From the IMG/VR virus record IMGVR_UViG_3300045988_154339: DNA of 59,570 bases. The stretch is one strand, 5' to 3'. This DNA comes from a virus. Every line of letters starts with the position of its first letter. Within the stretch, counting starts at the first letter, position 1. A program made the translations under genes and the position numbers. This document shows positions 9,022 to 59,570 of this stretch, in pieces. The notes beneath the pieces are model-generated. The model made no database searches. It was not told where the DNA came from and worked only from the letters and a program-made list of their open reading frames with translations.

Positions 9022-9026
9022 CACGT

Positions 9027-26060: not shown

Positions 26061-26153
26061 AGTCACTAGTTTAATTCTGGGACACTTTTGACGTTTTATA
26101 AATAATTCCTATTAAACATCTTGCGAAGTGTCTCAGAATTAAACTGGTGAACC
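26061..26153. repeat. Long-hairpin intergenic element, copy C (tip inverted; shares 3' flank with copy F)
   Basis: Positions 26063-26087 pair with 26126-26150 over about 25 bp, with two G:T pairs on the plus strand. The tip reads AATAATTCCTATTAAAC. The flank CAACGATTGATTGG lies at 26162-26175. Confidence 0.85.
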
Positions 26154-26200
26154 CATTTTGACAACGATTGATTGGAAAGTAACTAAAATTAAACATGACA

Positions 26201-27940: not shown

Positions 27941-27972
27941 GATTGGGTACTCCTTATCTTTATTTTGTATTT

Positions 27973-28001
27973 ATTATATCACACTTTTTCTCAAAAGTAA
28001 A
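27973..28001 (-). promoter_or_regulatory. Promoter cassette P9 (minus strand)
   Basis: Minus strand: TTTACT (27996-28001), 17 nt, TGTGATATAAT (-10 at 27973-27978). Confidence 0.75.
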
Positions 28002-28041
28002 CTACTTTGATGTACTTTTTACAAAGTTTTTCAAAATATTT

Positions 28042-28081
28042 TTCAGAAAAGAGAAAGCAACCGAGACTTAACGTTTCGGTT
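28042..28081 (-). terminator. Rho-independent terminator (minus strand)
   Basis: AACCGAGAC-loop-GTTTCGGTT hairpin, followed on the minus strand by GCTTTCTCTTTTCT. Confidence 0.6.
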
Positions 28082-28107
28082 ACTTTCCAAATAAAGATTT
28101 GGAAAAC

Positions 28108-28203
28108 GAATTCACACGTTTAACTCTGAAACACTTAACGAGAAGTTTAATAGGAATATTTATCAAACACACAAAGTGTCTCAGAAGTCATCTGGTGAAC
28201 TCA
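28108..28203. repeat. Long-hairpin intergenic element, copy D
   Basis: GAATTCACACGTTTAACTCTGAAACACTT..GTTTAATAGGAATATTTATC..AAGTGTCTCAGAAGTCATCTGGTGAACTC. Confidence 0.85.
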
Positions 28204-28224
28204 GAGTATCAAAAGTAAACAACG

Positions 28225-30185: not shown

Positions 30186-30250
30186 GAGGTCACAGAGTTA
30201 AATCTGAGACACTTCACGACGTTTATAAATAGAATATATGGACTTCAGAG
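30186..30250. repeat. Long-hairpin intergenic element, copy E (right arm truncated by the next gene)
   Basis: GAGGTCACAGAGTTAAATCTGAGACACTT..TTATAAATAGAATATATGG..ACTTCAGAG. The stop of 30245..30541 lies inside the right arm. Confidence 0.6.
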
Positions 30251-30541
30251 TTTGTATCTCACGTATTCAATGATGTTATGCTGTTTAATCGGCTTTTTCA
30301 AACCGAAACAACGACATTTGAAGAACTGCTGAGAATGGTCGAACGTTTCGATGACGTCTTTCTCATTGACTTTGACTTTAAGCACGAGCACATCAGTGTT
30401 GCCGTGCATATACGCGAACTTCAAACAGTCTTGAGCTGTCTCGCACATGTAGACGATGCCTTCGATGTTTCGACATTCGATGCCTTTATCAAGTATCTCG
30501 ATGAGATTTTTGAACGGCGTTGCATGATAGTACGTTTTCAT
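30245..30541 (-). CDS. Hypothetical protein
   Basis: 98 aa. N-terminus YYHATPFKNLIEILDKGI. No confident family. Confidence 0.45.
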   Translation of the reverse strand: MKTYYHATPFKNLIEILDKGIECRNIEGIVYMCETAQDCLKFAYMHGNTDVLVLKVKVNEKDVIETFDHSQQFFKCRCFGLKKPIKQHNIIEYVRYKL

Positions 30542-33107: not shown

Positions 33108-33143
33108 AGTGGTGTTCTCCTTGTTTATCTTTATCTTGTATAT

Positions 33144-33172
33144 ATTATATCACATATTTTTTCGAAAGTAAA
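33144..33172 (-). promoter_or_regulatory. Promoter cassette P8 (minus strand)
   Basis: Minus strand: TTTACT (33167-33172), 17 nt, TGTGATATAAT (-10 at 33144-33149), then the leader ACAAGATAAAGATAAACAAGGAGA. Confidence 0.8.
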
Positions 33173-33214
33173 CTACTTTTGAGTACTTTTTTGAAAGTTT
33201 TTTCAAAAATTTTT

Positions 33215-34809: not shown

Positions 34810-34844
34810 CTGTGTGGTCTCCTTAATATCTTTATCTTGTATAT

Positions 34845-34873
34845 ATTATATCACATATTTTTCTGAAAGTAAA
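34845..34873 (-). promoter_or_regulatory. Promoter cassette P7 (minus strand)
   Basis: TTTACT (34868-34873), 17 nt, TGTGATATAAT (-10 at 34845-34850). Confidence 0.8.
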
Positions 34874-34919
34874 CTACTTTTGAGTACTTTTTGAAAAAAT
34901 TTTTGAAAAAATTTTCGCC

Positions 34920-34945: not shown

Positions 34946-34981
34946 GTGCGTGTATACGTACATGTGTACGCATGTGTACGT
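34946..34981. repeat. Perfect 36-nt alternating purine-pyrimidine tract
   Basis: GTGCGTGTATACGTACATGTGTACGCATGTGTACGT alternates R/Y at every position. Contains GTGTACGC and GTGTACGT. Confidence 0.9.
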
Positions 34982-36993
34982 TACGTGATGCCTCCATAAT
35001 ACTTTAATGCGACACGCATGCATGCGACGAAACCATCTTTTGTCGTTTGATAGCGAACGTTTTCATCTTTCGATTTTGCGAATTTGAAGCTCTCGATATC
35101 GACTTTTGTAGAAACGCAATGCTTGTCGACTAACACTGACTTGTTCGAAAACGCCAAGTTCAATTGAGCAACACTCTTGTCAAAGTCTTCAATCTCGTAT
35201 CGTTCGACAGTCACAGACTTCTGATACATGCCTGAGAGCGCAGGTGTTGCAGAACAATCGATGAACACGCTCTTTTTAGGGGCGAACGCTTTGAGTTGAT
35301 TGAGTCCTTCTTCAAGCGATGCCTTGAACATAATCTCTCGAGAAACGATGAGCTTTGTCTTCTCGGCGTACTTGACTTTGATTTCGTGAGCCTTCCAAAG
35401 GTCTCCCTCTTTGTTGAAGAATATCGTCGAGTATTTGCTGTCGTAAGAGTCCGCGTCGACGACATTTTCATCGTTGAACGAACGTCCATATACCATATTG
35501 CGACGGTCCATAAACACAAACAACACCAGCATCGAGAATGCGTCCACGATGTCATCGTGTTCGACAAACGGGAAGTTGAGCAATCGTTGTTTGAGATTTC
35601 GCAAAGCAGGCGAGAGCTCCCATTGTTGAGTGAGCTTGTTGAAGACCGTACGAACAAAGACGACGTTTCCGGATACCATATAGAGCGATGCAGACTCAAG
35701 TCGTTGAAACTTAGAAGCCGTTCCAGGTTGAAACGCTTGCATTCCTGCGACAGTGTCTTGAAGCTGTTGCAAAATCGGCGAACCGTTTGCTTTGTCTTCT
35801 ATCACTTGTATTGTGCCAGGGAAGACGTTGTCGATTTGCTCGACGTATTCGACTCCCTTTGTGAAGCCCATTCGTTTCTCTAAGCAATCTGTGATGTAGA
35901 GCGTTCCACGAACTCGATACCCAAGACACGACCCTAAGAAGTCAGACGTATCTTTGTCTTTCACAGGGAAGTCGTGTGATGCGAATGTGATTTCGGCATT
36001 CTCAACACCAGGCGTGTCGGGCATGTCCTTTTCGATAATCATGTCCGGCTTAATTGCAGTCTTATCGGACGCAATCGGGTTTTGCAAGTACTGAGTCTCG
36101 AAAATCGTTTCACCAACATCGGCTCTCAATGACTCGTAATTGCCAAAACGTTCAGGCCACAAGAAGTCACCTTTTTTGAGTCGTTTTATTTGACCCGAGA
36201 TGGGAAACACGATTATTGTTTCGTGCTGGAAAATTGCAGGCAGCGTAATGAACACGTAACGAGCCGCAAGCTTAGGCTCGTTCATGATGTGACCCGCAAT
36301 GTCGTTTGGCGCGAGTCTTTGCTGAATGTTCATGATGATGCACTTGTTGATGTCGTTGATACGAGAAGGCATTGTATTTTGGTAATACGCCCAGGCATTA
36401 CTCATCTCAGCTTGGTCTTTACGAGCTGTTTCTGCGTTCGTCAAGTCGTCGTTGATGATGATGTCGCCGCCGTAACCGGTAAATGCGTTTCTGTTCATCG
36501 AATACATCTCAGCGCCTCGATTATCGACGAGCTGTCCTTTCGCATTTGTTACGAGCTCAATCTCAGGAAAGAGCTCACGAAACTCTGCAGAGTTGAGAAT
36601 TCGATGTCGCTTAGTGTTCATCTGTGTTGCAAGTCCGCCAGTGTGTGAAACAGATGCAGCTTTGATTGGAGCGGAAAGCCATAACCACGTCGGACCGAAG
36701 ACGTTGAAAATCATCGATTTCGTGTGTCTCGGAGGGACCATCAAACATAAATTTTGCTTGTTTTGACGAACATCTAATATGTTAACGTCCGGTCCGACTT
36801 CAGGTATGACGATTTTTGGAGCATCGTAACCGACCCAACCTTTGCACATATACTGAAACACTTCGCAATAATACTGAATAAGCCAACCATCAACGAATTT
36901 TGATGGGTCTGCAACATGCCAGAAAGCTTTCACAAACTCGTAAAAGCTTTTGCGATATAGCGTTCTTCGCAATGCTTTTTCAATCAGGTCCAT
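34981..36993 (-). CDS. terL: Terminase large subunit
   Basis: 670 aa. ATPase region (PPRHTKS.., DIIINDDLTN). C-terminal nuclease motif FVEHDDIVDAFSM. Confidence 0.85.
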   Translation of the reverse strand: MDLIEKALRRTLYRKSFYEFVKAFWHVADPSKFVDGWLIQYYCEVFQYMCKGWVGYDAPKIVIPEVGPDVNILDVRQNKQNLCLMVPPRHTKSMIFNVFGPTWLWLSAPIKAASVSHTGGLATQMNTKRHRILNSAEFRELFPEIELVTNAKGQLVDNRGAEMYSMNRNAFTGYGGDIIINDDLTNAETARKDQAEMSNAWAYYQNTMPSRINDINKCIIMNIQQRLAPNDIAGHIMNEPKLAARYVFITLPAIFQHETIIVFPISGQIKRLKKGDFLWPERFGNYESLRADVGETIFETQYLQNPIASDKTAIKPDMIIEKDMPDTPGVENAEITFASHDFPVKDKDTSDFLGSCLGYRVRGTLYITDCLEKRMGFTKGVEYVEQIDNVFPGTIQVIEDKANGSPILQQLQDTVAGMQAFQPGTASKFQRLESASLYMVSGNVVFVRTVFNKLTQQWELSPALRNLKQRLLNFPFVEHDDIVDAFSMLVLFVFMDRRNMVYGRSFNDENVVDADSYDSKYSTIFFNKEGDLWKAHEIKVKYAEKTKLIVSREIMFKASLEEGLNQLKAFAPKKSVFIDCSATPALSGMYQKSVTVERYEIEDFDKSVAQLNLAFSNKSVLVDKHCVSTKVDIESFKFAKSKDENVRYQTTKDGFVACMRVALKYYGGIT

Positions 36994-37002
36994 ACTTATG
37001 CC

Positions 37003-37371
37003 TTAATCTTTCTTCTTGAATTCAATGACTTTGCCGTCTTCTGCAGGTTCTTCAGGCATGTTCGTGCCGAAAATACCGAATGCTCTGCAAAGCGTCGACA
37101 CAACACTTGCAACATGAGCGTTCGACTGACACTCTTTAATGACGTCGCGCAACATTGCGTGCCGCTCTTCGAGCTGAGCTCTCTGATTGAGGGTGTTATC
37201 GATGTCGTTCTTGAGCGAATGCGTGAAGCCTTCAAACTTCTTTGCTTTGTCGCTCTCGTTAACGAGCTCGATGAGTTCGTTCTGTTCTGCTGTGACCTTG
37301 TCGATATGAGAGAGTGTTCTCTCCATTTCGTCCGCGGTCTCGATGAGCATGAATGTGAGGTCTTTTTCCAT
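37003..37371 (-). CDS. Hypothetical coiled-coil protein upstream of terL
   Basis: 122 aa, AAAGGAGAA RBS. Confidence 0.5.
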   Translation of the reverse strand: MEKDLTFMLIETADEMERTLSHIDKVTAEQNELIELVNESDKAKKFEGFTHSLKNDIDNTLNQRAQLEERHAMLRDVIKECQSNAHVASVVSTLCRAFGIFGTNMPEEPAEDGKVIEFKKKD

Positions 37372-37411
37372 TTTGGGTTCTCCTTTTGATATAATTTACT
37401 TATGAATAAAC

Positions 37412-37506
37412 GAGGTTCAGATTTGACTTCTGAGACACTTTGCTGCTTTTATTATTATTCCTATTAAAAGACTTGCAAAGTATCTCTGAGTTAATCTGGT
37501 GAACTC
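37412..37506. repeat. Long-hairpin intergenic element, copy F (tip inverted; shares 3' flank with copy C)
   Basis: GAGGTTCAGATTTGACTTCTGAGACACTT..TTATTATTCCTATTAAAAG..AAGTATCTCTGAGTTAATCTGGTGAACTC. The flank CAACGATTGATTGG lies at 37514-37527. Confidence 0.85.
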
Positions 37507-37541
37507 GTTTTATCAACGATTGATTGGTATGTAAACGAAAC

Positions 37542-38072
37542 TTACGTTTTGACATTCTTTTTGTTCTCGTAGTATCTTTTTCTTGCTTCACTCATTTTTC
37601 GTTTTGTTTCTTCGCTATGATGCGTACCCGCACGATTATTTGAGTTATACACGCCTTTCATACGTTTACTACGAGCTTCACATACTTTGGCATCAAGCGT
37701 CCAATGTTGACCGATGGGTCCTTTGTTGCCGATCGCACGTTTACGTTGACTTTCTTTATTTTGTTCTGTATTAGGACCTTGATATTTGTACGCTTCATTT
37801 TGTTTATGCGTACACCATTCAAGATTATCCGCCGCTGCATTCTTTTGATTGCAATCTTTATGATTGACTTCAGGTAAATTGTTCAGGTTTGGAATAAATG
37901 CAATTGCTACAAGCCTGTGTACAAGCCACTTTTTATAACACGGATATGCAACAGCATGTCCTCGATACGTAAACGTAGGTTCAATTATTTCGTGTGTCAA
38001 TGCGTTACGAAGTCTACCAAAATTTGAAACTTCGACGTTCTTTGCTATACTTGATGCCCAACATTCTGTCAT
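37542..38072 (-). CDS. HNH homing endonuclease with NUMOD-like C-terminal repeats
   Basis: EVNHKDCNQKNAAADNLEWCTHKQN (HNH). C-terminal GTHHSEETKRKMSEARK repeat. Lower GC than its neighbours. Confidence 0.8.
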   Translation of the reverse strand: MTECWASSIAKNVEVSNFGRLRNALTHEIIEPTFTYRGHAVAYPCYKKWLVHRLVAIAFIPNLNNLPEVNHKDCNQKNAAADNLEWCTHKQNEAYKYQGPNTEQNKESQRKRAIGNKGPIGQHWTLDAKVCEARSKRMKGVYNSNNRAGTHHSEETKRKMSEARKRYYENKKNVKT

Positions 38073-38890
38073 AACTTACCTCGTTTAAGTGCTTCAATTA
38101 ACTCGTTCTTTTTCATTGTGATAATTTTGTGAACACGATAATCATAAACAGAATACGAATATTTTGTCAAATCATCAATATCTACTATGGGTTGAGGTGA
38201 GCAGCGACAGTTCGGGTATTCACCCGCTCCTCCTACCATTCCGTCGAGCTCAGGTTTTGCGTGCTTCCAGAATACAATGACACCATTCATCTCTCTATGC
38301 GACTTACGTGTTCGCCTATCGTTCGATGCGAGCCAGATATACGCAACACTGCCGAGCTGTGTTGAGCGTTCTTCGAGAATTGCCGTTTGCAGCTTCGCAG
38401 TTTCAGTTCGAGCAATAAGAGCTGCGTTTTTGTGACCGTGCTTTTCGAGTTGCATTCTGAATGAGCGACGACCAATCGAGCCTTTTGCGACTTGTTCGAT
38501 AAGCGTCGAAGTGTATTTATGCTCGAGCACTTCAAGAAACTTGCTCGGTATCGATTTTATCATCGTGAAGTTGTGCTTTATCGCAGCGGTCATGTTGTTG
38601 TACTCATACTCTGTGAAAGATGTTTTGAGCGAGATGTGACCGCTTGCTCGAGCAGCTTCATAATACTTGCGCCAAACGCCTTTCGTTCCCGACAAACCTT
38701 GCTTGGCGAGCTCCTTCGAAAATTTCGCAGCAAAATCGTCGAATTGCTTCGACGATTGCAACTGCAACACTTTCTTCTTTACAGGCTTTCTGTCACCTCT
38801 CGAAAGAGATGCGAGCGTAGTGTTGGTGAAACACTTTTTGAAGAGCGTCCAGTAAATTTTGTTGATTTTGCGTTCGACTGCTTTTGTCAT
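38069..38890 (-). CDS. Phage Mu F / SPP1 gp7-like minor head protein
   Basis: ARTETAKLQ ... DRRTRKSHREMNG ... YPNCRCSPQPI. Confidence 0.75.
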   Translation of the reverse strand: MTKAVERKINKIYWTLFKKCFTNTTLASLSRGDRKPVKKKVLQLQSSKQFDDFAAKFSKELAKQGLSGTKGVWRKYYEAARASGHISLKTSFTEYEYNNMTAAIKHNFTMIKSIPSKFLEVLEHKYTSTLIEQVAKGSIGRRSFRMQLEKHGHKNAALIARTETAKLQTAILEERSTQLGSVAYIWLASNDRRTRKSHREMNGVIVFWKHAKPELDGMVGGAGEYPNCRCSPQPIVDIDDLTKYSYSVYDYRVHKIITMKKNELIEALKRGKL

Positions 38891-41090: not shown

Positions 41091-41119
41091 AGTCAGTTCT
41101 CCTTACTTATCTTATATTC

Positions 41120-41148
41120 ATTATATCACAAATTGTTCGAAAAGTAAA
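41120..41148 (-). promoter_or_regulatory. Promoter cassette P6 (minus strand)
   Basis: TTTACT (41143-41148), 17 nt, TGTGATATAAT (-10 at 41120-41125). Confidence 0.75.
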
Positions 41149-41182
41149 CTACTTTAAGCCACTTTTCGAACAATTTTGCAAA

Positions 41183-42034
41183 TTATTTTATGAGATACTC
41201 GAACTCTTCTTTTGTAAGCCCATCGTATTCTTCGTATGATGTGAACGGGTCGACGTAACCTCGATGACAGTTGTTGACTTTTTGAGGTGTTTCCCATGAC
41301 CCGCCATACCAAGTGCTCAACACTTGCTCCATCATGTACGGCACAGGCACCATCATGCCTTCAAACGGCATTGCAGCTGTCTTTTCGTACCACGACTTTT
41401 TCAAGATGATGAGCTCTCGGTCGTATCGCCAAAACGCCATATTTGCGATGTGTTCAGAGTGTTCGTTTCGTTCATGAACGTCTTTCAAAACCGAATTGAG
41501 CATGTCCCAGTAATAGCCGGGAATTCGAGGTTCGACGTCCTGTCCCGTATGCTTTGCGACAGTCTTGATGAAACCTGCGACATCTTCACGAACTTGTAAC
41601 AACTCAGGCGCATTGTCAAGCGGAAAGATGTCGAGAAACATGCCTTTGTTGTGCGAGCCTCGATACTCACGTTCTGTCAATGCCGTCGTGAATTTGTCAC
41701 GAAGTTTTGCATGAACTTCAAAGCAGTTATCAGTTCTCGCAGTCTGAAAGAAGTAAGCCGCGCCAAAGATTTGCGGGTCTCGTTCTGCGATGTTGAGCAA
41801 TCTTGTGTAGTCTTCACGAGGCATTGTAACGTCAACGTCGTCGTCCCACGGTATCATGTGACCGTCTCGAACTGTTCCGAGCAATGTTCCGCCGTCGACC
41901 CACCATTTGAGATTGTACTTTGCACAAACTTCTGCGAACGCTTTGAGCAATCCCACACAAACTTGTTTGACTTGCTCAAGTCGCATTTCAACGGGCATCC
42001 GTTTTTTGAGTAACTCAATCTTCTGTCGTATCAT
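41183..42034 (-). CDS. licD: LicD-family phosphotransferase (phosphocholine transferase-like)
   Basis: WWVDGGTLLGTVRDGHMIPWDDDVDVTMPREDY is the LicD signature. Confidence 0.75.
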   Translation of the reverse strand: MIRQKIELLKKRMPVEMRLEQVKQVCVGLLKAFAEVCAKYNLKWWVDGGTLLGTVRDGHMIPWDDDVDVTMPREDYTRLLNIAERDPQIFGAAYFFQTARTDNCFEVHAKLRDKFTTALTEREYRGSHNKGMFLDIFPLDNAPELLQVREDVAGFIKTVAKHTGQDVEPRIPGYYWDMLNSVLKDVHERNEHSEHIANMAFWRYDRELIILKKSWYEKTAAMPFEGMMVPVPYMMEQVLSTWYGGSWETPQKVNNCHRGYVDPFTSYEEYDGLTKEEFEYLIK

Positions 42035-43598
42035 TTTCGGCCTCCTCGTCTATGTTGAGTTTTGCGTTATGTCGTTTTAATTCAATAAAGAACGAAATCA
42101 CGATGCATATCATAATGAACGTTAGCAAAAACGCACCGATTATCGCCATTGATTGAAGCAAATGATTTGTGCCATCTAAGAATATGAGCGCAATCGGCAA
42201 CACTAAGAATAACAGCGCCCAGTAAATCTTTACTGGCTTTGACGGCGATGCGTCAATGTCAAGCTTTTTGTACGAGAATGAACTCACAACATCTGTCAAA
42301 GCATCGAATGTCGAAGCGTAAAGCCCGAACATTGTGAGCAGGAGCAAAGGAAGTGCGATGTACCAGAAGCCCGAACCTTTCGAACAAATCAACTCGATGA
42401 TGCATTGTGCAGGTGACGCGCCCGAAGCAATCATTCCTGCAAAGTCAAAACCCGATGCTTGAGCACTCATTCCGAAACCACCGAAAATCGTAAAGCTTGC
42501 AAACGTTCCGAGCAAACCTGCTGTACCGCCTTGTAATAACACTTGCTTGATTGTGCGACCTTTCGAGATTTTCGCAATGAAAAATGGAGTCGCAACGCAC
42601 CAAGCAATCCAGTACGCCCAGTAGAATACCGTCCAGTCTTGCACAAATCCACCCGATACACGAGCAGGGTCTGTCCAAGTTGCCATGCTGAAGAAGTTTA
42701 TGAACATGTTTCCGATGCCCTGAATGCCATTCTCAAGAATGAACAACGGGTTGCCCATAATGAAGAACAACGCCAAGAGTAATGAGAACAAAATCGTTGT
42801 TATCTTTGCGACAATCGAGATGCCTTTATGCCCGACCAACACTGCGGCTGTGTAGATGATTGCGATGATGCAAAGTATTACGACTGAGATTACTGGCGAT
42901 GATGCAATGCCGAAAAGTTTGCAAACAATAGCAGTCATAAGTGGTGTTGTTACACTAAACGTCGTCGATGTTCCAAGCAACAGTCCAACTACCGCTATAA
43001 CGTTTGTTGTTGATTTGAGTCCGTTTGCAAGTTTCGGTCGACCTGTTTTTTCGAAAATCGGAAGACACATTTGACCCATGCCCTGTGCATCACGTTTTTT
43101 GCGAGTGAAGAACATAAATGCGTATATAACAGCCAACACAAGATAGAACGCCCAAGGAATGAGTCCCCAATGAAAATACGTGTAAGTCGATGAGTTGAGC
43201 ATCTGGTCTGTCGAACCGGCACCTGTAAGTGCGTTGTTTGAGTTGAAGTAATACGTCCACTCATGCATTGCATAGAACAAAATGTCCGCAGCCATAGTCG
43301 ATGTAAAAATCAGAATGCCGTACGTTCCGAGCTTCATCGGTTTGTCTGTCTCTTTACCGAGACGAATTTTGCCGACCTTTGAGAATGCGAGATAGAGTAA
43401 AAGCAAAAATGCAGCAAGCCCGAACAGCAAATAGTACCAGCCAAACTTGTCGCCGATAAATGTACGAACTGCCATAATGATAGTCTCAGCTTGTGTTGCA
43501 AAGATTGTGATGAGCACACCCAATGTAATTACGATTATTGCCGGAATGAACAAGATTGTCTTGTCAAACTTGGCGAGTCGTTCACGAATTTTTTTCAT
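42015..43598 (-). CDS. BCCT-family (betaine/carnitine/choline) transporter
   Basis: ORF 42015..43826. The ATG at 43598 lies 6 nt after AAGGAGA. About 12 TM helices. BCCT signature WTVFYWAYWIAWCVATPFFIAKISKGRTIKQ. Confidence 0.8.
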   Translation of the reverse strand: MKKIRERLAKFDKTILFIPAIIVITLGVLITIFATQAETIIMAVRTFIGDKFGWYYLLFGLAAFLLLLYLAFSKVGKIRLGKETDKPMKLGTYGILIFTSTMAADILFYAMHEWTYYFNSNNALTGAGSTDQMLNSSTYTYFHWGLIPWAFYLVLAVIYAFMFFTRKKRDAQGMGQMCLPIFEKTGRPKLANGLKSTTNVIAVVGLLLGTSTTFSVTTPLMTAIVCKLFGIASSPVISVVILCIIAIIYTAAVLVGHKGISIVAKITTILFSLLLALFFIMGNPLFILENGIQGIGNMFINFFSMATWTDPARVSGGFVQDWTVFYWAYWIAWCVATPFFIAKISKGRTIKQVLLQGGTAGLLGTFASFTIFGGFGMSAQASGFDFAGMIASGASPAQCIIELICSKGSGFWYIALPLLLLTMFGLYASTFDALTDVVSSFSYKKLDIDASPSKPVKIYWALLFLVLPIALIFLDGTNHLLQSMAIIGAFLLTFIMICIVISFFIELKRHNAKLNIDEEAENDTTED

Positions 43599-44337
43599 TG
43601 TCATTCTCCTTATTTGCTTGCTTATAGTCAAGCACTGTGTCGATTTCAAGCAATGCAGGTTTGTCTGCAACGTATGCACAAAGGTCGAATTTATCGTCAT
43701 ACAACACACAAGGTATGTTGTCAATGTAACATTGCATATTCTTACCGTCTTTTGTCGCTTCCTTTGCGAGTTCATAAAGTTTTGCCATGTCCATAGGCGT
43801 CCAGAACGATAATGAACGTAAGACATAACCAGATTTGTACGAACCGTCTGTTATGACACGATGAATTTTACGTCTTGCTGCGCCAGAGATATTTGCGACC
43901 CACTCTTTTGCGCAACATTCAGCGTCTTCGCAATATTCGAGATAATACCCAGAACGTTCGATTTTCGTTTCGATTACACTGTCATCTTCGATGTATAAGT
44001 CTGCATCGAGCATAACTGTGCCATACGACTTTGAACAACGAGAAAGTCCTTCATAGCCCTTAATGAACGAGATGATGTTGTTCGTACAAAACCACTTCTT
44101 GTTGTACACAAGCGTGACGCCGTACTTTTCGTTCAGATAATCGAACATCCAGTACTTGTAGCCTGTAACGACATAAATATCGTCGATGCCTTTAGCCTGA
44201 AGCTGTTCGATAAGACGTTCAATCAACACTTCGCCTCGTACTTTGCACAAAGGCTTGGGTTGTTCGTCAGTCAGGTTTTCAAGTCGTTTACCACGACCTG
44301 CCGCAAGAATTATTGCGGACTTGATTTCATGTACCAT
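43582..44337 (-). CDS. licC: LicC-like nucleotidyltransferase (CTP:phosphocholine cytidylyltransferase-like)
   Basis: N-terminal AIILAAGRGKRL...QPKPL loop. 251 aa. Confidence 0.75.
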   Translation of the reverse strand: MVHEIKSAIILAAGRGKRLENLTDEQPKPLCKVRGEVLIERLIEQLQAKGIDDIYVVTGYKYWMFDYLNEKYGVTLVYNKKWFCTNNIISFIKGYEGLSRCSKSYGTVMLDADLYIEDDSVIETKIERSGYYLEYCEDAECCAKEWVANISGAARRKIHRVITDGSYKSGYVLRSLSFWTPMDMAKLYELAKEATKDGKNMQCYIDNIPCVLYDDKFDLCAYVADKPALLEIDTVLDYKQANKENDNEKNS

Positions 44338-44367
44338 TTAAGGTCCTCCTTACTTTATCTTAGTTCT

Positions 44368-44396
44368 ATTATATCACAATTTTTCTCAAAAGTAAA
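44368..44396 (-). promoter_or_regulatory. Promoter cassette P5 (minus strand), drives licC-BCCT-licD
   Basis: TTTACT (44391-44396), 17 nt, TGTGATATAAT (-10 at 44368-44373). Confidence 0.75.
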
Positions 44397-44450
44397 CTAC
44401 TTTGATACAACTTTTCAAAAATATTTTCAAGAACTTGAATGAAGAGATAG

Positions 44451-44472
44451 CAAAAGCCCGAGCTTATCGGGC
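44451..44472 (-). terminator. Rho-independent terminator after the kinase gene
   Basis: GCCCGA-GCTTA-TCGGGC, followed on the minus strand by TTTTGC. Confidence 0.6.
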
Positions 44473-44479
44473 AATTGCA

Positions 44480-45379
44480 TTATTCTTTGTTTTTGATATA
44501 TCGCAGCACGATGTCCGAGTATTTGTCGGCGTACTCAAATTGATTGTTTGTGTAGTCGCCGTATGTTACGCCACAATTTTGCTTGTAAATGCACCAGTTA
44601 TACCAGAGCATTCCTGCAAGAGCGGCGTACCCGTAAATCTTATGTCGAGTATCGTTGTCGATGTCTTTGCGAAAGTAGTTGCTCATGATTGTGTTGAACT
44701 GTTCTCTGCTGTAGTTGCAATATGTCGCCCACATTGCAATGTCAACATGCGGGTCTTGCAAACCTGCGTACTCCCAATCAATGAGGGTCGGTATTCCCGA
44801 GCAACCCGCAAAAATCGCATTGTCGGGATTTGCATCAATTTGGCATAAACAACACTTGCGAGGCAGTCGTTCAATCCAAGCAGCGATTTGCAAGCATCGA
44901 TTGTACACCTCTTCATATTTTACTCGAGGAGTGTGATTGCGAATTTTTGCAAGCTCGCGGTATCTATCGATGTTGGCAGTCAACGAGAAGTACTCGACGT
45001 TCGGTCTAAGCTCAAGTTCGTGAAACTCACGAAGTTTTGTCATGCACGCCATAACGTCGGTTGATTTGTTCGGGTCGCAATTACGAGGGTTTGTGATGTA
45101 CTTCGTAATTTTCATGCCGTCAGGCGAGATGAAAACTGTGAGATTGTCGTACTCGAGATTGTGCAAAAAGTTGTAGACACGATACTCTTGCGCACGATTG
45201 ATGAGCTCTTTTGAACCTTTGCCGGGAAGTCGAACTATGTACTTTTTTGACTTTACGTCAATCAAAATACTCGAATTCGTCATACCTCCTGCAGCATCGT
45301 CACATATACAAATATCTTCGGGTAAACACCAAAGTATACTTGATATGAGCTCGTATTGTGATTTAGTAAACGTAGGCAT
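44480..45379 (-). CDS. licA: Choline/ethanolamine kinase-like (APH fold, LicA-like)
   Basis: Catalytic loop CQIDANPDNAIF (Q in place of the usual H). LIDWEYAGLQDPHVDIAMW. Confidence 0.7.
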   Translation of the reverse strand: MPTFTKSQYELISSILWCLPEDICICDDAAGGMTNSSILIDVKSKKYIVRLPGKGSKELINRAQEYRVYNFLHNLEYDNLTVFISPDGMKITKYITNPRNCDPNKSTDVMACMTKLREFHELELRPNVEYFSLTANIDRYRELAKIRNHTPRVKYEEVYNRCLQIAAWIERLPRKCCLCQIDANPDNAIFAGCSGIPTLIDWEYAGLQDPHVDIAMWATYCNYSREQFNTIMSNYFRKDIDNDTRHKIYGYAALAGMLWYNWCIYKQNCGVTYGDYTNNQFEYADKYSDIVLRYIKNKE

Positions 45380-45397
45380 TGTGATGTTCTCCTGTTT

Positions 45398-45486
45398 ATC
45401 TGGCTTAACTTCTGAGACACTTTAATGAGGGTGTAATAGGAATATTTAGACCTCTCATTAAGTGTCTCAGAAGTAAACCTGTGACT
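45398..45486. repeat. Long-hairpin intergenic element, copy G
   Basis: CTTAACTTCTGAGACACTTTAATGAGGGTGTAATAGGAATATTTAGACCTCTCATTAAGTGTCTCAGAAGTAAACCTGTGAC. About 20-bp near-perfect inner stem. Confidence 0.85.
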
Positions 45487-45926
45487 TAGTTTTGATTGTT
45501 CAGATACTCAAGATGTGTCTTGATTTCGTCGACAATCGCATACGGCGTGTACTCCGAAGTGTTGAACACGAGTATATGATTTTCCGGAACGTCGAAACGT
45601 TCTTTGAGCTCATAAAGCGCAAGCTTAAATGCTTGAGTCATCTCTTCGTATGTGAAGCCCGTGTTCGGTTCGTTCGTGAGTTTGCAACGAATTTCCCAAT
45701 CCTGTTTGTCGACTTCGAGCAACACAAAGAGTGTGTTCTTTGCATAATCTGCGCCGTCCCATTCGATGTTCCGTTTGTAAAGCTTTGCATACGCGATTTG
45801 CGAAATCAAACCGCGTGCTCTGCACAAATACTTTCCGGGTTCGAGATAAAACACATACGGTCTGACAGAGTCTTTGCCGCATTTGTCGATGCCGTCGAGT
45901 TCGATGTTGAAGACTTTAAGTTTCAT
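45486..45926 (-). CDS. dNMP/thymidylate kinase-like P-loop kinase
   Basis: ORF 45486..45953 (TTG). The ATG at 45926 gives MKLKVFNIELDGIDKCGKDS (P-loop). Confidence 0.55.
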   Translation of the reverse strand: MKLKVFNIELDGIDKCGKDSVRPYVFYLEPGKYLCRARGLISQIAYAKLYKRNIEWDGADYAKNTLFVLLEVDKQDWEIRCKLTNEPNTGFTYEEMTQAFKLALYELKERFDVPENHILVFNTSEYTPYAIVDEIKTHLEYLNNQN

Positions 45927-46845
45927 TGAAAATACCCGCCTTCCAACGTTCAATCATCTCTTTTTCGCCCGGGAATAAGAGCTCAAATTCTTCGTTGTCA
46001 TACATACGCATGAGTTCGGCATACCACGCACTCTTTTTGAAGTCGCAAGTACAATTCACGGTTGCCGCCGTAACTTCTTCGTTCGCATCGTTGAAACGCA
46101 TAAACGAGTTGCCGAACACTTTATCTGTGTTCATGCCTTTTTTCTGTTTTGCACCTTGACAGTCACAGCCGGCAAGAATGTCCTTGTAGAACAAATACGT
46201 GAGCTCGTCAATGTCGCCGCTTTCGTAATCTTCTTCGAGTTGTTCAAGCATTCTGTGAAGACACAATCTGTAGACGAGATTGATTTCGTCGCTCAGATTA
46301 TTCTCACAACGCATACCGAACGAGCCACAAAATGTATTGATATCGACGACATACACAAACGATGTGGTCTGTCCGTGAATGAGCATGTAACGAGCGTCCT
46401 GATACGGAATGCCCATGTCGACGAGCTTGTTGTAAAAGTTTTGCGAGGCTTCGCAAAGTTCGATGGCCTCTTTGCGCAGATTTTCGTCCTGCCAGATGTT
46501 GAGCGGAATGATTACGTTGTGCCCAACAGGCTGCGGCATTTGAGATTCGACGTTAAACGCCGCTTTGCGTTGGCGTGTGATTTGCGCAAGACAAACGCGA
46601 GATACATTCTCAATTCTGAACGTCATAAGTGCCTGTTCACGAGGCATAGGCAACGCCTTGAATGCGATGATGTTGCGAATTGCTTCACGAACACGTTTGT
46701 CGTTTACGTCGTATTCGACGTCTTGCAATTCGCGCCAAGTCATTCTGTAGCAGTTCCACGCATGTCTTGCGATATTTTTGTCATAGTCGACAATGCTTAC
46801 GTCGACATCCGAGTAGCCTGCCGAATAAGGTGCGAGATTTTTCAT
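45916..46845 (-). CDS. ThyX-like (flavin-dependent thymidylate synthase fold) protein with degenerate signature
   Basis: FRIENVSRVCLAQITRQRKAAFNVESQM aligns to the ThyX RHRxxSxxxxSxR block, but with H->Q, S->A and R->M. Confidence 0.6.
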   Translation of the reverse strand: MKNLAPYSAGYSDVDVSIVDYDKNIARHAWNCYRMTWRELQDVEYDVNDKRVREAIRNIIAFKALPMPREQALMTFRIENVSRVCLAQITRQRKAAFNVESQMPQPVGHNVIIPLNIWQDENLRKEAIELCEASQNFYNKLVDMGIPYQDARYMLIHGQTTSFVYVVDINTFCGSFGMRCENNLSDEINLVYRLCLHRMLEQLEEDYESGDIDELTYLFYKDILAGCDCQGAKQKKGMNTDKVFGNSFMRFNDANEEVTAATVNCTCDFKKSAWYAELMRMYDNEEFELLFPGEKEMIERWKAGIFNET

Positions 46846-47360
46846 TTTTTCATGACCTCCTTAAGTCTTTGCTCGATTGTTTTGAGACGTTCAAGCGTTT
46901 CGTCTTTGATTGTTTCGAATGTTACGTTGCCGAGTTCAATTTCGTTATACGCATACTGCAACACAGACATTGCGTCTGCGTACTTTACGATGAGATTTAC
47001 TGTGTTTTCGCTTTCATCGTTCATCAGTTTTGCGAGTTCCGGAAAATGCTTTTCGAAGTACTTGTCTTCGTAAACTTTGAGCAACGGATAGAGATTGAGC
47101 GCGACCTTTACATCGTATGTGATGTCGTTGAGTTCCGTTTCAGGCATGTCATGCAACAACGATTTGAGAATACATGCAAGCATCGACTCATTATCGAGTT
47201 CAAATCGTTTGCACAATTCGAGTGTAATGAGCGTCGTAAAAAACGAATGCTCCGCGACGCTCTCATCTTTCAGTCGTGTTCTGTGATTGTACCTCGTAAT
47301 GTTCTTGAGCTTGTACATTTCGAGGAGCTTTTCTTTGCTGAAGAATAATTCGTCCATCAT
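46842..47360 (-). CDS. HD-domain 5'-deoxynucleotidase (YfbR-like)
   Basis: ESVAEHSF ... LLHDMPE motifs. Confidence 0.7.
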   Translation of the reverse strand: MMDELFFSKEKLLEMYKLKNITRYNHRTRLKDESVAEHSFFTTLITLELCKRFELDNESMLACILKSLLHDMPETELNDITYDVKVALNLYPLLKVYEDKYFEKHFPELAKLMNDESENTVNLIVKYADAMSVLQYAYNEIELGNVTFETIKDETLERLKTIEQRLKEVMKK

Positions 47361-47797
47361 TCCACCAGCCCATCGAAAGAGTGTACCTGCTTGAACACGT
47401 AAGAGTCTTTATCGACGAGCAAATTTTCAAGCTCATTGATATCTCTTGCAACTCTGCCCGTTTTAGCGAGCATCAAATTGAACGGCTTATCGCCGAGTGT
47501 TTCGCAGTAGTAAATTACGGGCTTTTGCTTTGCGTACGCATAACCGCATTCCCAAAGCGTGCCCATGTCTTTGTAGTCGGTGATTGCAACAACCAAGTCC
47601 GCCTCGTCAATCGCCTTGCAATTGTTGAGCAAGACCTGAGTCATGTGGTCGGTCTCTTTACCGACTTTGAAGTCTCCACCAGCGGTTCTGGGATTGAAGA
47701 CCTCGAGATTTTTGCGACGTTCGAGGAAGTTTCCTATGCGAGTATGTTCTTCTTCCTGAGCCGGACTGAACCAGCCGCCTGCAAAATAGATTTTCAT
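47357..47797 (-). CDS. Nucleoside 2-deoxyribosyltransferase-like protein
   Basis: MKIYFAGGWFSP ... DMGTLWECGYAYAKQKPVIYY. Confidence 0.7.
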   Translation of the reverse strand: MKIYFAGGWFSPAQEEEHTRIGNFLERRKNLEVFNPRTAGGDFKVGKETDHMTQVLLNNCKAIDEADLVVAITDYKDMGTLWECGYAYAKQKPVIYYCETLGDKPFNLMLAKTGRVARDINELENLLVDKDSYVFKQVHSFDGLVE

Positions 47798-52956: not shown

Positions 52957-52978
52957 TTGTATGGTCCTCCTTGTTTTA

Positions 52979-53007
52979 TCTTGATTATATTATATCACAT
53001 CTGAAAC
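52979..53007 (-). promoter_or_regulatory. Promoter cassette P4 (minus strand)
   Basis: TTTACT (53002-53007), 17 nt, TGTGATATAAT (-10 at 52979-52984). Confidence 0.75.
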
Positions 53008-53079
53008 GAAAAGTAAACTACTTTTGAGTACTTTTTTTCAAAAAATTTTTCGGAAAGTTACTAAATTTTTGAGATGACA

Positions 53080-54468: not shown

Positions 54469-54542
54469 TGGAGCTCGATGTTGGAGTCGAACCAACAATT
54501 CATGATTACAAATCAAGTGTTTTACCATTAAACTAATCGAGC
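54469..54542 (-). tRNA. tRNA-Thr (anticodon UGU), CCA encoded
   Basis: Minus strand: GCTCGAT TA GTTT AATGGTA AAAC A CTTGA TTTGTAA TCATG AATT GTTGG TTCGACT CCAAC ATCGAGC T CCA. Perfect acceptor, D and T stems. One U:U mismatch in the anticodon stem. Confidence 0.85.
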
Positions 54543-55019
54543 GTCTTTTGTTTTGAACGACGAACTAGTCTGCCTTTGCCTGTCCTGCCACCAACGTTAC
54601 GAAATGTGTCTGTCATTGCATGACAATTGGGACAAATCAAAACTATGTTTGATACATGCCAATTTGTATGGTCACCATCAATATGATGCAATTCTAAAAT
54701 GCTATGACCTGTATAGGGATTAACACCCCTTAAAACCACAAGAGGAACAAGTATCATTTTGTTTTTCAGCTAAATATCGATAAAGCCATACTTTAGCTGT
54801 AGCTATGGTCGTTTCATCAATAGATGCTACCCATTGTTCATACTTTGCTCTTGCTGTTTTACGTAAACTTTCTTTTGCGTACTCAGGCAACGAACAATCT
54901 CTTTTGGATGCTGATAATTTTACTCGTTCAGAATGTTCTGCTCGTTTTTCAGCCGTCCAAAATCTTTTTTGACCTTCAGATATTTTTCGTTTTGTTTCTT
55001 CAGAATGTTTTCTTGCCAT
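54533..55019 (-). pseudogene. HNH endonuclease (N-terminal NUMOD-like, C-terminal CxxC..HH..CxxC) split by a frameshift at a G4 run
   Basis: ORFs 54720..55019 (..CSSCGFKGC*) and 54533..54757 (..ELHHIDGDHTNW..CPNCH). Removing one G from GGGG (plus-strand CCCC, 54726-54729) gives CGFKGVNPYTGHSILELHHIDGD. Confidence 0.75.
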
Positions 55020-55028
55020 CTTGTATTT

Positions 55029-55057
55029 ATTATATCACATTTTTTCTCAAATGTAAA
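55029..55057 (-). promoter_or_regulatory. Promoter cassette P3 (minus strand); HNH ATG only 9 nt after the -10
   Basis: TTTACA (55052-55057), 17 nt, TGTGATATAAT (-10 at 55029-55034). The ATG at 55019 sits inside the conserved leader ACAAGAT and has no RBS. Confidence 0.7.
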
Positions 55058-55118
55058 CTCTTTTGGGTACATTTTAAGAAAAAATTTTGAAGCAATTTTG
55101 AGATTTGCAAATGTATCA

Positions 55119-55216
55119 AGAATTATTCTGAGGTATATCAGAGAAAACAACTTGTGAGATAATAAGAATATTAAATAAGAGCTGCAAGATGTCTCAGAGT
55201 TAATCTGGTGAACTCA
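55119..55216. repeat. Long-hairpin intergenic element, copy H (left arm degenerate)
   Basis: Right arm AAGATGTCTCAGAGTTAATCTGGTGAACTC is intact. Tip is GATAATAAGAATATTAAAT. The left arm retains only ATTCTGAGGTAT. Confidence 0.6.
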
Positions 55217-55245
55217 CGTGTACACGTGCGTATACGCATATATAT
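55215..55245. repeat. Perfect 31-nt alternating purine-pyrimidine tract with nested palindromes
   Basis: CACGTGTACACGTGCGTATACGCATATATAT. CACGTGTACACGTG and CGTATACG are perfect palindromes. Confidence 0.9.
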
Positions 55246-55262: not shown

Positions 55263-55547
55263 TTATTCCAGACCATAACTCCTGAAAATCTTTCGAACGA
55301 CAAACCAAAGATTATTCGCCTCGTCATTTGAGAGTTTGCATTGAGGCGACACAAGATATTGAGCGAACTCTGTCTGAATATCGACCAACATCAGCTGGAG
55401 CTCATGCGGGATGCTCTTCGGGTTTGACTTAATAAATTGCTCACGCAAGTCAGGCTCAGTTTGAGTAGGAGCATCTGGCTCAGGCTTGTGTTGGTCGAGG
55501 TCTTTCAGATGTATTGCCGTAGGATAAGACTTTTGCATGGCACTCAA
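55263..55547 (-). CDS. Hypothetical protein
   Basis: 94 aa. Overlaps the stop of the HD gene. Confidence 0.45.
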   Translation of the reverse strand: MSAMQKSYPTAIHLKDLDQHKPEPDAPTQTEPDLREQFIKSNPKSIPHELQLMLVDIQTEFAQYLVSPQCKLSNDEANNLWFVVRKIFRSYGLE

Positions 55548-56176
55548 AACAAATTCTTGATGTCGAGCTCTTTACGAGATGCGAGATAATCGCACATGTG
55601 AACGAAATGTTGCAACGGGTCGGAAGGAACGGGAAGTGTTACGCCAGGCGAGTAAGATGAAGTGTTCCACTGACCCATGTGCGACTCGATGCCTCGAGCG
55701 ATAGTGTTGAGAATGAGTTGAATGTTCTTCGCCATGTCGTCAACACTAAGGAAATGCTCGTCGAAATTGAAGTGCGTTCTCACAGCTTCTGCGGCAAGAA
55801 CAGGATGGTCAAAGCGAGTGTATTGCGACTTTGCTTCGTCGGAGATGCCGGACTTGCGTGTATCGTGCATAATGAGTGCAGCGATCGCACAGTCGAGTTC
55901 GTATTCAGAAAGTTGTAACGGATTGGGCGTGCGTAAAATATTCGCGAACAAGCATGCAGCTTTCGTATGACGAACGAGTCCGCCTTGACCAAGTGCATAG
56001 TCGGGGTGATATTTGCCCGTAGACGATGCAGGAATGTCGAAGAAGTAGTTCGGAATTGCGCCGATGAGCTCTTCGGTGAGAGTGCGAATTTCGAGGTCTT
56101 TGATGTACGAAAGCTCGCGTTTGAAAACTGCGACTTTCTGTTCTGCTGTAAGAACGGGACAAGAGTTGGGTTGCAT
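55544..56176 (-). CDS. HD-domain phosphohydrolase
   Basis: ORF 55544..56239. The ATG at 56176 follows AAGGAGA. GKYHPDYA ... LIMHDTRKSG. Confidence 0.6.
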   Translation of the reverse strand: MQPNSCPVLTAEQKVAVFKRELSYIKDLEIRTLTEELIGAIPNYFFDIPASSTGKYHPDYALGQGGLVRHTKAACLFANILRTPNPLQLSEYELDCAIAALIMHDTRKSGISDEAKSQYTRFDHPVLAAEAVRTHFNFDEHFLSVDDMAKNIQLILNTIARGIESHMGQWNTSSYSPGVTLPVPSDPLQHFVHMCDYLASRKELDIKNLF

Positions 56177-56201
56177 AGATTTATCTCCTTTTGATGTTGA
56201 T

Positions 56202-56693
56202 TTATGCTTTGAATTTGTCAAGCTGAACGTTCGCCTCATGCAAAAGCTTTAAGGCGAAATCGTCGGGATAGCCTTCAAGATAGACGACTCGTTTGATGCC
56301 TGCGTTTATGATTTGCTTAGCACATATCGAGCAAGGCTGATGTGTACAGTACAGAGTCGAACCGTCAACACTGATGCCGAGCTTTGCAGCTTGCAGCAAT
56401 GCGTTTTGTTCAGCATGTATCGCAAAGCAGACCTCTTGTCGAGTGCCGGACTCAATGTGAGCAAGTTCACGCAGACATTGATTTTTCTCTGCACAAGACT
56501 CAATGCCTGACGGTGCACCGTTATAGCCGGTCGTGAGAATGCGTTTGTCTTTCACAATTACAGCACCAACTTGACGTCCAGGACGAATGCAACTTGACCA
56601 AGTTGCAATCTCTTGTGTAACGCGCATAAAGCGAGCGTCCCAGCGGTGTTGTTGAGCGAGTTCTTGACGCATTTTTTCAAGATGTTCGAACAT
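56202..56693 (-). CDS. dCMP deaminase
   Basis: HAEQNAL ... PCSICAKQI zinc motifs. GYNG. Confidence 0.9.
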   Translation of the reverse strand: MFEHLEKMRQELAQQHRWDARFMRVTQEIATWSSCIRPGRQVGAVIVKDKRILTTGYNGAPSGIESCAEKNQCLRELAHIESGTRQEVCFAIHAEQNALLQAAKLGISVDGSTLYCTHQPCSICAKQIINAGIKRVVYLEGYPDDFALKLLHEANVQLDKFKA

Positions 56694-57365: not shown

Positions 57366-57397
57366 ATTTGAAGTCTCCTTTCATTTATCTTGATTAT

Positions 57398-57426
57398 ATT
57401 ATATCACATCTTTCATCAAAAGTAAA
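57398..57426 (-). promoter_or_regulatory. Promoter cassette P2 (minus strand)
   Basis: TTTACT (57421-57426), 17 nt, TGTGATATAAT (-10 at 57398-57403). Confidence 0.75.
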
Positions 57427-57495
57427 CTACTTTGAGTAACTTTTTGAAAAAGATTTTGAAAATTTATGGAAGTGTAAGAGTAAATTATAATGATT

Positions 57496-59515: not shown

Positions 59516-59570
59516 TCCTTTAAGTTTATCTTAAATATATTATATCACACTTAAATTGAAAAGTACATCA
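59516..59570. repeat. Terminal direct repeat (copy of 1-55)
   Basis: Identical 55-mer. Carries the -10 and -35 of promoter P1 (59539-59567). Confidence 0.95.

Follow-up and report, generated by a model that had tools for sequence, protein, structure and literature searches.

A conserved family of long intergenic hairpins in an uncultured phage genome: candidate RNA processing or stability elements

We analyzed a family of long hairpins that lie between the genes of a phage genome, IMG/VR virus record IMGVR_UViG_3300045988_154339 (59,570 nt; the whole of this stretch is referred to here as the window). The family is real, and all of its members are intergenic: A, B, C, D, F, and G are full copies, E is truncated, and H is decayed. 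An initial annotation of the window had proposed eight such elements, and we found every one within approximately 5 nt of where it had been placed. In related phages, the hairpins are retained over long divergence with compensating changes in their arms, and part of the family shows a bias toward a more stable fold on the sense strand.

Eight hairpins and their setting in the phage genome

We consider the window a complete, circularly assembled phage genome of approximately 59.5 kb because bases 1-55 recur at positions 59516-59570. The plus strand from 662 to approximately 26000 carries structural genes (including portal, tail fibre, and baseplate genes), and the minus strand from approximately 59500 down to 26200 is occupied by genes for replication, nucleotide metabolism, packaging, and accessory functions, among them those for a primase-helicase, a PD-(D/E)XK nuclease, ThyX, DNA polymerase, the large terminase subunit, an SNF2 helicase, and a ligase. 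Gene directions diverge from approximately position 0 and meet at approximately 26 kb. The primase-helicase is D5-like (DUF5906). A megablast search with the window returned no match to a close cultured phage; the portal protein is <28% identical and the DNA polymerase at most 33% identical to those of known phages. The polymerase has its nearest cultured relatives in phages of Paenibacillus, Bacillus, Staphylococcus, and Enterococcus, so that a Gram-positive host is probable for this phage as well. Among the 54 open reading frames (ORFs) that we scanned, no gene for a phage RNA polymerase or RNase III turned up, nor did an integrase or recombinase gene. The promoters resemble those of the host sigma-70/sigma-A type, and transcription appears to use the host polymerase. 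A promoter repeat of approximately 89 nt occurs about 10 times (TTTACT, a 17-nt spacer, and TGTGATATAAT, with A/T tracts upstream), and several of its copies are preceded by ordinary G/C-rich terminators with a U tract (Table 1).

The 13-mer TTCTGAGACACTT, allowing up to two mismatches, occurs 13 times in the window compared to 2.7 ± 1.7 times in shuffled sequences, and none of 100 shuffles reached 13 occurrences. A covariance model (CM) built from the six full copies scored these copies at 72 to 99 bits, with E-values of 1e-17 to 1e-24. Copy H scored 21 bits with this model and 25 bits with a second, broader model that includes divergent copies from relatives; truncated copy E scored 13 bits (E = 0.8) with the first model, which places it among background matches, and 24 bits with the second. 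Neither model found further copies in the window, which was also scanned with filters off. A sliding-window minimum free energy (MFE) scan for other long hairpins was too noisy, and a gapless palindrome finder missed known copies.

Each full copy is an imperfect palindrome of 99 to 102 nt that folds as one long hairpin with an MFE of -34 to -43 kcal/mol, in agreement with the initial description of the family as hairpin forming; the G+C content of the elements is 33 to 39%. The stem, approximately 40-45 bp long, contains 30 to 37 Watson-Crick pairs along with G:U pairs and is interrupted by 1x1 mismatches that are conserved. At its base is the outer stem (GAGTTCACCAG...), in which three positions are mismatched in most copies. 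The 13-bp core consists of TTCTGAGACACTT paired with AAGTGTCTCAGAA, and the conserved 11-bp core box, UUCUGAGACAC paired with GUGUCUCAGAA, presents the same 11 bp on both arms. Beyond the core, an inner stem of approximately 10 bp varies in sequence from copy to copy and leads to an A/T-rich tip of approximately 13 nt (TAATAGGAATATT). The two halves of each variable inner stem had been described as complementary to each other, and they are: cognate halves pair with a mean of -15.5 kcal/mol, swapped halves with a mean of -9.9 kcal/mol, and the native arrangement is matched by only 4 of 720 permutations.

Other parts of the initial description needed correction. The GGAA at the tip had been taken for a GNRA-type loop; however, it occurs in both orientations with respect to transcription, reads UUCC in half of the transcripts, and in relatives is not kept but drifts to other A/T-rich sequence. 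The orientation of the tip is fixed at each site, is the same across all relatives, and, as had been noted, is independent of the direction of transcription. Copies C, D, and F have in common an extra one-sided stretch of approximately 30 nt plus outer inverted repeats (GTTTACTTT ... AAAGTAAAC), and the side on which this extension lies follows tip orientation, not transcription direction. The elements had also been said to lack U tracts, which is true of A, B, E, and G but not of C, D, and F, which end in TTTT or TTTA.

All copies lie between genes, as initially described, and five of them (A, B, E, F, and G) lie between ORFs on the same strand with no promoter or terminator between the hairpin and the upstream gene. 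Copies A, E, and G fill the exact gap between a stop codon and the next ribosome-binding site (RBS), inside operons that need read-through. Copy A spans the gap from the stop codon of the ORF at 8842-9021 to the RBS (GAGGAGG) and ATG (9134) of an accessory gene (9134-9529, plus strand), which encodes a predicted 131-aa membrane protein without a family match. In one relative (L044, contig 139937), positions 9121-9540 of the window are replaced by 6 nt, and the membrane-protein gene is absent. Copy G spans from the stop codon of the ORF at 45486-45953 to the RBS of a choline kinase gene. An RBS directly follows copy E, which fills the space from stop codon to Shine-Dalgarno sequence and is also kept in truncated form in L007, L013, L014, and L015. 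Copy B begins directly after the stop codon of the ORF at 19266-20054, approximately 1 kb upstream of the major head gene. Copy F lies between an HNH homing-endonuclease gene and a 122-aa ORF, which is followed by the large terminase gene, and ends approximately 35 nt before a Shine-Dalgarno sequence.

The remaining copies (C, D, and H) are located at the ends of transcription units. Copy C lies where plus- and minus-strand transcription converge, between terminator-like sites at 26005-26034 (plus) and 26226-26198 (minus); in L017 and L018, this hairpin is located between the ligase gene and the terminator and is thus in the 3' untranslated region (UTR) of the leftward operon. Copy D, which folds at -33.6 kcal/mol on the minus strand compared to -18.8 kcal/mol on the plus strand, ends a leftward operon and is followed by a small hairpin, a terminator-like stem with a T-rich tail (approximately 28045-28080), and a promoter (28001-27973). 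Copy H is upstream of a promoter (55057-55029), and its orthologue in L028 folds better (-25 kcal/mol).

Some genes beside the hairpins vary among relatives. The gene next to copy F (37542-38072, minus strand, 176 aa) is a free-standing HNH_3 plus NUMOD3 homing-endonuclease gene, and it is absent in six loci (L013, L024, L025, L027, L028, and L030), with breakpoints at 37545 and 38079-38130. Because it is inserted at the 3' end of a Mu-F-like gene, its adjacency to hairpin F is most simply read as coincidence. The hairpin core is also unlikely to be the target of this endonuclease, given that the genome carrying the gene keeps all cores. Downstream of copy H, a 99-aa ORF with a NUMOD3 motif (54720-55019) is absent in L022-L024. 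The choline kinase gene that follows copy G belongs to a complete lic-like phosphocholine pathway (41183-45379, minus strand) with an internal terminator (44472-44456) and promoter (44396). With this unusual auxiliary cassette, the phage could add phosphocholine to host surface glycans.

Table 1. Positions of the hairpin copies and of other features in the window, and of distant hairpins in two related contigs
Feature	Positions	Strand	Remarks
Hairpin copy A	9024-9123	+	Full hairpin; CM 92.6 bits; MFE -38.0 (plus) vs -34.2 (minus) kcal/mol
Hairpin copy B	20049-20150	+	Full hairpin; CM 72.3 bits
Hairpin copy C	26056-26157	-	CM 99 bits; one-sided extension 26158-26188
Hairpin copy D	28105-28205	-	CM 89.6 bits; extension 28073-28104 forms small hairpin
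Hairpin copy E	30186-30262	-	3' arm intact; shortened 5' arm overlaps end of ORF 30245-30541
Hairpin copy F	37409-37509	-	CM 90.1 bits; extension 37510-37545
Hairpin copy G	45393-45491	-	Full hairpin; CM 80.1 bits; MFE -40.3 kcal/mol on both strands
Hairpin copy H	55117-55218	-	Decayed; both cores kept, outer left arm lost
Distant-relative hairpins, contig L017	9157-9257, 11019-11122, 17491-17590		Core TCTGTTGAAC paired with GTTCAACAGA
Distant-relative hairpins, contig L018 (site B with the window-type core)	9168-9254, 11009-11110		Core TCTGTTGAAC paired with GTTCAACAGA
Promoter repeats (~89 nt)	6-94, 573-660, 27955-28043, 33126-33214, 34827-34915, 41102-41190, 44350-44438, 52971-53059, 55011-55099, 57380-57468		
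Ordinary terminators	33239-33215, 34944-34914, 44472-44456		G+C-rich with U tract
Head protease	15919	+	
Major head protein	21183-22292	+	
LicD	41183-42034	-	
BCCT choline/betaine transporter	42015-43826	-	
LicC-like nucleotidyltransferase	43582-44337	-	
Choline kinase	44480-45379	-	Choline kinase domain
tRNA-Thr (anticodon TGT)	54469-54542	-	Single tRNA; early region

Retention, covariation, and strand preference in related phages

Three protein-seeded scans of IMG/VR yielded approximately 20 related contigs with 55 to 100% protein identity (given L numbers here), and synteny of the flanks was confirmed at the hairpin sites. Scanning these relatives with the covariance models located the elements at the same sites: wherever both flanks are present (5 to 20 loci per site), they enclose an element whose length differs by no more than 1 nt, and no site is empty. 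Sites B, C, D, F, and G still hold hairpins in relatives at only 55 to 66% protein identity, as detected with the second model in the most distant contigs (L016-L021, L029, and L031). In distant contigs, the core is often TCTCTGTTGAAC paired with GTTCAACAGAGA, or TTCTGGTTGAC. The core varies with lineage and is common to the paralogues within a genome (GAGACAC in the window group, GTTGAAC in L017), with the exception of site B in L018, which retains the window-type (GAGACAC) core. The lineage-specific cores in L017 and L018 suggest partial concerted evolution or a co-evolving binding factor.

Nucleotide identity is 56 to 93% in the hairpins and 64 to 91% in their flanks, so the elements do not show unusual sequence conservation. 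Because hairpin identity roughly equals flank identity while pairing persists, structure rather than sequence appears to be kept. Covariation, which the initial annotation had described for the variable stem, depended in formal pair counts on which copies were compared. In the conserved arms of close copies, 79.7% of cells are paired compared to 79.6% after shuffling, indicating no covariation beyond conservation, and RNAalifold applied to a MAFFT alignment recovered only the 13-bp core. Once divergent orthologues were included, covariation was evident: in this alignment, which was adjusted to the structure, has each site represented by both strands, and is made up of related sequences, 79.1% of cells are paired compared to 74.7 ± 0.6% after shuffling, double-sided changes number 119 compared to 70 ± 9, and the covariation score is 0.217 compared to 0.142 (at most 0.087 in slid registers). 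None of 500 shuffles reached the pairing, double-change, or covariation values. Exchanging halves between orthologues points in the same direction. At site C, chimeras of the window and L018 halves fold at -16.4 and -16.2 kcal/mol compared to -37.6 kcal/mol (window) and -34.2 kcal/mol (L018) for the native hairpins; chimeras of orthologous halves are likewise less stable at site B, and at site D against the most distant orthologue, L016. Overall, the arms change together in distant relatives, keeping the hairpins.

We compared the folding energies of the two strands among distinct variants at each site. The plus strand is more stable in all 10 variants at site A (by 0.4 to 4.4 kcal/mol) and in all 11 variants at site B (by 4 to 19 kcal/mol), and the minus strand is more stable in all 9 variants at site D (by 1.5 to 15 kcal/mol). 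In each case, this is the transcribed strand, and distant copies mostly agree with the preference at these three sites. Of 11 variants at site C, 9 fold more stably on the minus strand. The initial annotation had assigned the mismatches of A, B, and C to hairpins on the plus strand and those of D to the minus strand; our data bear this out for A, B, and D but place C on the minus strand. Its suggestion that the hairpins are read in the local direction of transcription agrees with the energies at A, B, and D; the bias is weak among individual substitutions, which are considered below.

Possible roles of the hairpins and other features of the genome

We propose, with a probability of roughly 0.4, that the elements act in RNA, as double-stranded hairpins located between cistrons or in 3' UTRs that host RNase III cuts or that block exonucleases. 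Host RNA polymerase would transcribe the hairpins within long polycistronic phage mRNAs, where each element would fold as an imperfect double-stranded hairpin of approximately 40-45 bp, intercistronic in the case of A, B, E, F, and G and at the 3' end of an operon, before the terminator, in the case of C, D, and perhaps H. Double-stranded RNA of 40-45 bp is a substrate for bacterial RNase III. A cut by this enzyme, or a block by the stem to 3'-to-5' exonucleases, would divide the operon mRNA into segments of unlike stability, and these stabilities would determine how strongly the flanking genes are expressed relative to one another. After cleavage, the RNA of the upstream cistron would carry a stem at its 3' end, and the RNA of the downstream cistron would have a new 5' end only a few nucleotides ahead of a strong Shine-Dalgarno sequence; for C and D, at operon ends, the 3' end would be protected or controlled by the stem. 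In this proposal, we infer three things: transcription through the elements, cleavage by RNase III, and an effect on expression.

Cleavage may be positioned or limited by the 11-bp core together with the three 1x1 mismatches conserved in the outer stem, which may instead bind a putative protein. Because the core box, the mismatch positions, and the length are all conserved, the elements suggest specific recognition, by RNase III or another factor. A further candidate is a trans-acting factor that co-evolves with the phage lineage and reads the hairpins, which we consider distinctly unlikely; it is raised because the 11-bp core differs between lineages yet is common to paralogues within a genome. 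Such a factor might be a phage protein that binds double-stranded RNA or DNA, in which case the hairpins, instead of being passive RNase III substrates, could form a phage-specific regulon for the processing or translation of accessory and capsid genes, or could serve as a structured-RNA decoy against host defence.

Several observations weigh against RNA processing or stabilization as the role of the hairpins. Neither strand is favoured at F or G, and the bias at H runs slightly the other way. At the level of substitutions, strand bias is weak, with 46 changes between Watson-Crick and G:U pairs compared to 32 between Watson-Crick and A:C; a further 37 substitutions break a pair outright, and 11 are compensated. 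If replication is co-directional with transcription, hairpins on the lagging-strand template would have the same bias, and template-switch (quasipalindrome) mutation can keep arms complementary without selection. The conserved arms taken by themselves lack covariation. In the window, copy C is beyond a terminator in both directions. Finally, an RNA element should not need a fixed orientation, and the orientations of the tip and of the C/D/F extension are fixed without relation to transcription. An RNA-level reading is favoured over a DNA-level one but is not established, and the initial annotation was correct in its caveat that the elements could act as DNA.

The hairpins may instead be functionless or selfish quasipalindromes, i.e., an old repeat in tolerated intergenic sites whose arms are kept complementary by template switching, not selection. 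The decay of copies E and H would be consistent with this explanation, as would the evolution of the hairpins at about the rate of their flanks, the behavior of the close copies, the independence of tip orientation from transcription, and the tolerance of pair-breaking polymorphisms (37 to other mismatches plus 24 to A:C, compared to 11 compensated). We nevertheless regard it as rather unlikely, given that length is constant at 99 to 102 nt, that no relative has an empty site, that the same sites are retained down to 55 to 66% protein identity in a compact genome, that three mismatch positions are conserved and the strand bias at A, B, and D is consistent, and that neither target-site duplications nor bacterial copies turned up in the searches described next. 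Mobility of the MITE or REP type was rejected: there are no empty sites among loci with both flanks and no consistent flanking direct repeat that would mark a target-site duplication. Nor does the family appear in cellular genomes; an exact core-pair pattern, which would miss diverged copies, had 4 matches in 185,579 bacterial and archaeal species genomes, all in unrelated metagenome-assembled genomes and attributable to chance.

A role at the DNA level, as a protein-bound palindrome or cruciform or as a recombination site for the exchange of gene modules, would account for the same 11-bp core on both arms, for the lineage-specific core variants in paralogues, and for a tip polarity that is independent of transcription; the A/T-rich centre would favor cruciform extrusion. 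The initial annotation had likened the arrangement to the shuffling cassettes known as PeSLs in T4-type phages, and two accessory-gene indels do abut hairpins, at A and F. However, these are the only two such cases among the approximately 100 indel and replacement boundaries seen on comparing the window with its relatives, and the mean identity shift is no larger at hairpin junctions (0.034) than at 59 other gene junctions (0.033; Mann-Whitney p = 0.42). The elements also lack the promoter-terminator make-up of PeSLs, so neither a recombination hot spot nor PeSL-type shuffling was upheld. Integron attC sites were likewise rejected: GTTRRRY is present in no copy and RYYYAAC only in D and G, and the scanned ORFs include no integrase or recombinase. 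Given that a protein-binding palindrome would need neither 45 bp of pairing nor a covarying variable inner stem, we consider a DNA-level role unlikely.

It is improbable that the hairpins are attenuators, terminators, or read-through insulators that stop or pause RNA polymerase at operon boundaries. The positions of D and H directly upstream of promoters and of C at convergent transcription would suit such a function, as would the TTTT or TTTA ends of C, D, and F, but A, B, E, and G are without a U tract and lie inside operons whose downstream genes need read-through. Moreover, copy D has its own separate small terminator-like stem after it, and the genome uses ordinary G+C-rich terminators with a U tract elsewhere (Table 1). 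A terminator scan that found these picked none of the elements, in support of the initial view that they are not simple terminators. Least probable of all, in our judgment, is that they act as single-stranded DNA hairpins on the lagging-strand template, e.g., as priming or primosome-assembly signals for the D5-like primase-helicase of the phage. If replication follows the gene directions, from approximately position 0 and meeting at approximately 26 kb, the bias at A, B, and D fits a lagging-strand template equally well; however, this explanation presupposes the fork directions, there is no link between primase and hairpin sequences, and eight sites per 59 kb are too few for lagging-strand priming.

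Three narrower possibilities were rejected. Sequestration of the RBS is contradicted by extended folds, in which the Shine-Dalgarno sequences after A and G are unpaired with the stem. A promoter in the C/D/F extension (TTTACA-17-TAAAAC in F) is not tenable, as the hexamers are not kept in C, D, or distant orthologues and would be antisense in D. A restriction-site decoy was considered for the GAGAC/GTCTC in the core; this motif is not avoided in the genome (103 observed, 123 expected).

If the elements are processing or stability elements, they would constitute a well-defined, clade-conserved hairpin family that divides operon mRNAs outside the classic model phages, and their unusual and constant length, core box, and mismatch positions offer handles on recognition by RNase III or other factors. 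If they are functionless, they document the long persistence of a quasipalindrome family in a compact phage genome. In either case, the family is a marker for an uncultured phage clade in metagenomes, with a model that detects it down to 55% protein identity.

The genome has other features apart from the hairpins. Certain short palindromes show strong avoidance across the window: GATC occurs 11 times (one of these sites is inside the HNH gene), CTAG 5 times, and GAWTC 7 times compared to approximately 133 expected, with normal counts of GACTC (57) and GAGTC (49). This avoidance points to host restriction systems of those specificities. Nucleotide-metabolism genes on the minus strand (45916-47797 and 55544-56693) encode ThyX, a YfbR-like 5'-deoxynucleotidase, a nucleoside 2-deoxyribosyltransferase, a dCMP deaminase, and an HD-domain protein, a set that may be a sign of changed nucleotide pools or of DNA base modification. 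The genes for the large terminase subunit and possibly the small subunit (34981-37371, minus strand) are co-transcribed with the replication genes, at a long distance from the portal gene (662-2143, plus strand) that heads the structural operon. There is a single tRNA gene (Table 1).

Comparison with known elements

In the window, only tRNA-Thr passes the Rfam gathering score; at E ≤ 1, the elements give only sub-threshold matches to plant microRNA precursors, which reflect a generic long-hairpin shape. A perfect 19-bp inverted repeat with a TTCTGAGACACTTTC core (L002 2336-2398 and L005 192-254) was rejected as a member of the family. It lies inside a 348-aa ORF, on a viral contig that is unrelated to the window (37% G+C, no protein similarity), and is most likely a coincidence.

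The PeSLs (promoter-early stem-loops) of T4-type phages combine a sigma-70-like promoter with a stem-loop that is a G/C-rich terminator; they are markers of indel junctions and give rise to mini-circles (PMC2839356, PMC4122927). The elements described here resemble them in being a repeated intergenic motif with a stem-loop; A, F, and G adjoin accessory genes, and D and H are near repeated promoters. However, six of the eight elements are without a promoter, and D and H precede one only at a distance of approximately 60-100 nt. Their stems are A/T-rich, and the U-tract and junction results given above differ as well. Within this genome, the ~89-nt promoter repeat family, often preceded by an ordinary terminator, fits better as a PeSL analogue.

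The extended start-associated sequences (ESAS) of Cluster K mycobacteriophages have 17-bp arms and 4-13 bp spacers and are tied, in one orientation, to a 13-bp start-associated motif (PMC3203893). Both families consist of repeated imperfect inverted repeats with a variable spacer, located immediately before the start of certain genes; both are conserved per gene family across related phages and have lineage-specific consensus variants, and the function is not known for either. The arms here are longer (approximately 45 nt) and have no companion start motif.

Bacterial palindromic repeats (REP/BIME, ERIC, Correia, BOX, and RUP) can either stabilise the mRNA upstream of them or undergo cleavage by RNase III. 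Like the present elements, they are imperfect palindromes of approximately 100 nt that are co-transcribed with flanking genes, which for the phage hairpins we infer. They differ in being chromosomal, numerous, and often mobile, and they vary in presence and duplicate their targets; the present family occurs only in a single phage clade, at fixed sites, with no empty sites, no duplications, and no copies among the bacterial genomes scanned.

The closest precedent is offered by phage RNase III sites, to which the initial annotation had already compared the elements. The early and late mRNAs of T7 contain intercistronic RNase III sites (R0.3, R0.5, R1, R1.1, R1.3, and others) of approximately two helical turns around an internal loop, and their cleavage was shown by experiment. 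Like these sites, the present elements are related imperfect hairpins between the cistrons of long mRNAs with few promoters; the T7 sites are likewise free of U tracts, and the RNA upstream of them ends in a stem, as we propose here. The present elements are longer, with stems of 40-45 bp and an A/T-rich tip of approximately 13 nt, and have no sequence similarity to the T7 sites, and two of them are at operon ends. Phage SP82 likewise has several mutually similar stem-loops between its cistrons, and the host here, like that of SP82, is probably Gram-positive. Sites for B. subtilis RNase III are present in SP82 early mRNA (Panganiban and Whiteley 1983, as cited in PMC4838370). An RNase III processing site is the most economical reading of the hairpins, one that we propose tentatively. 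Families of intercistronic phage hairpins are already known, and the present family differs from them in its size, architecture, and placement and in the uncultured clade to which it belongs.

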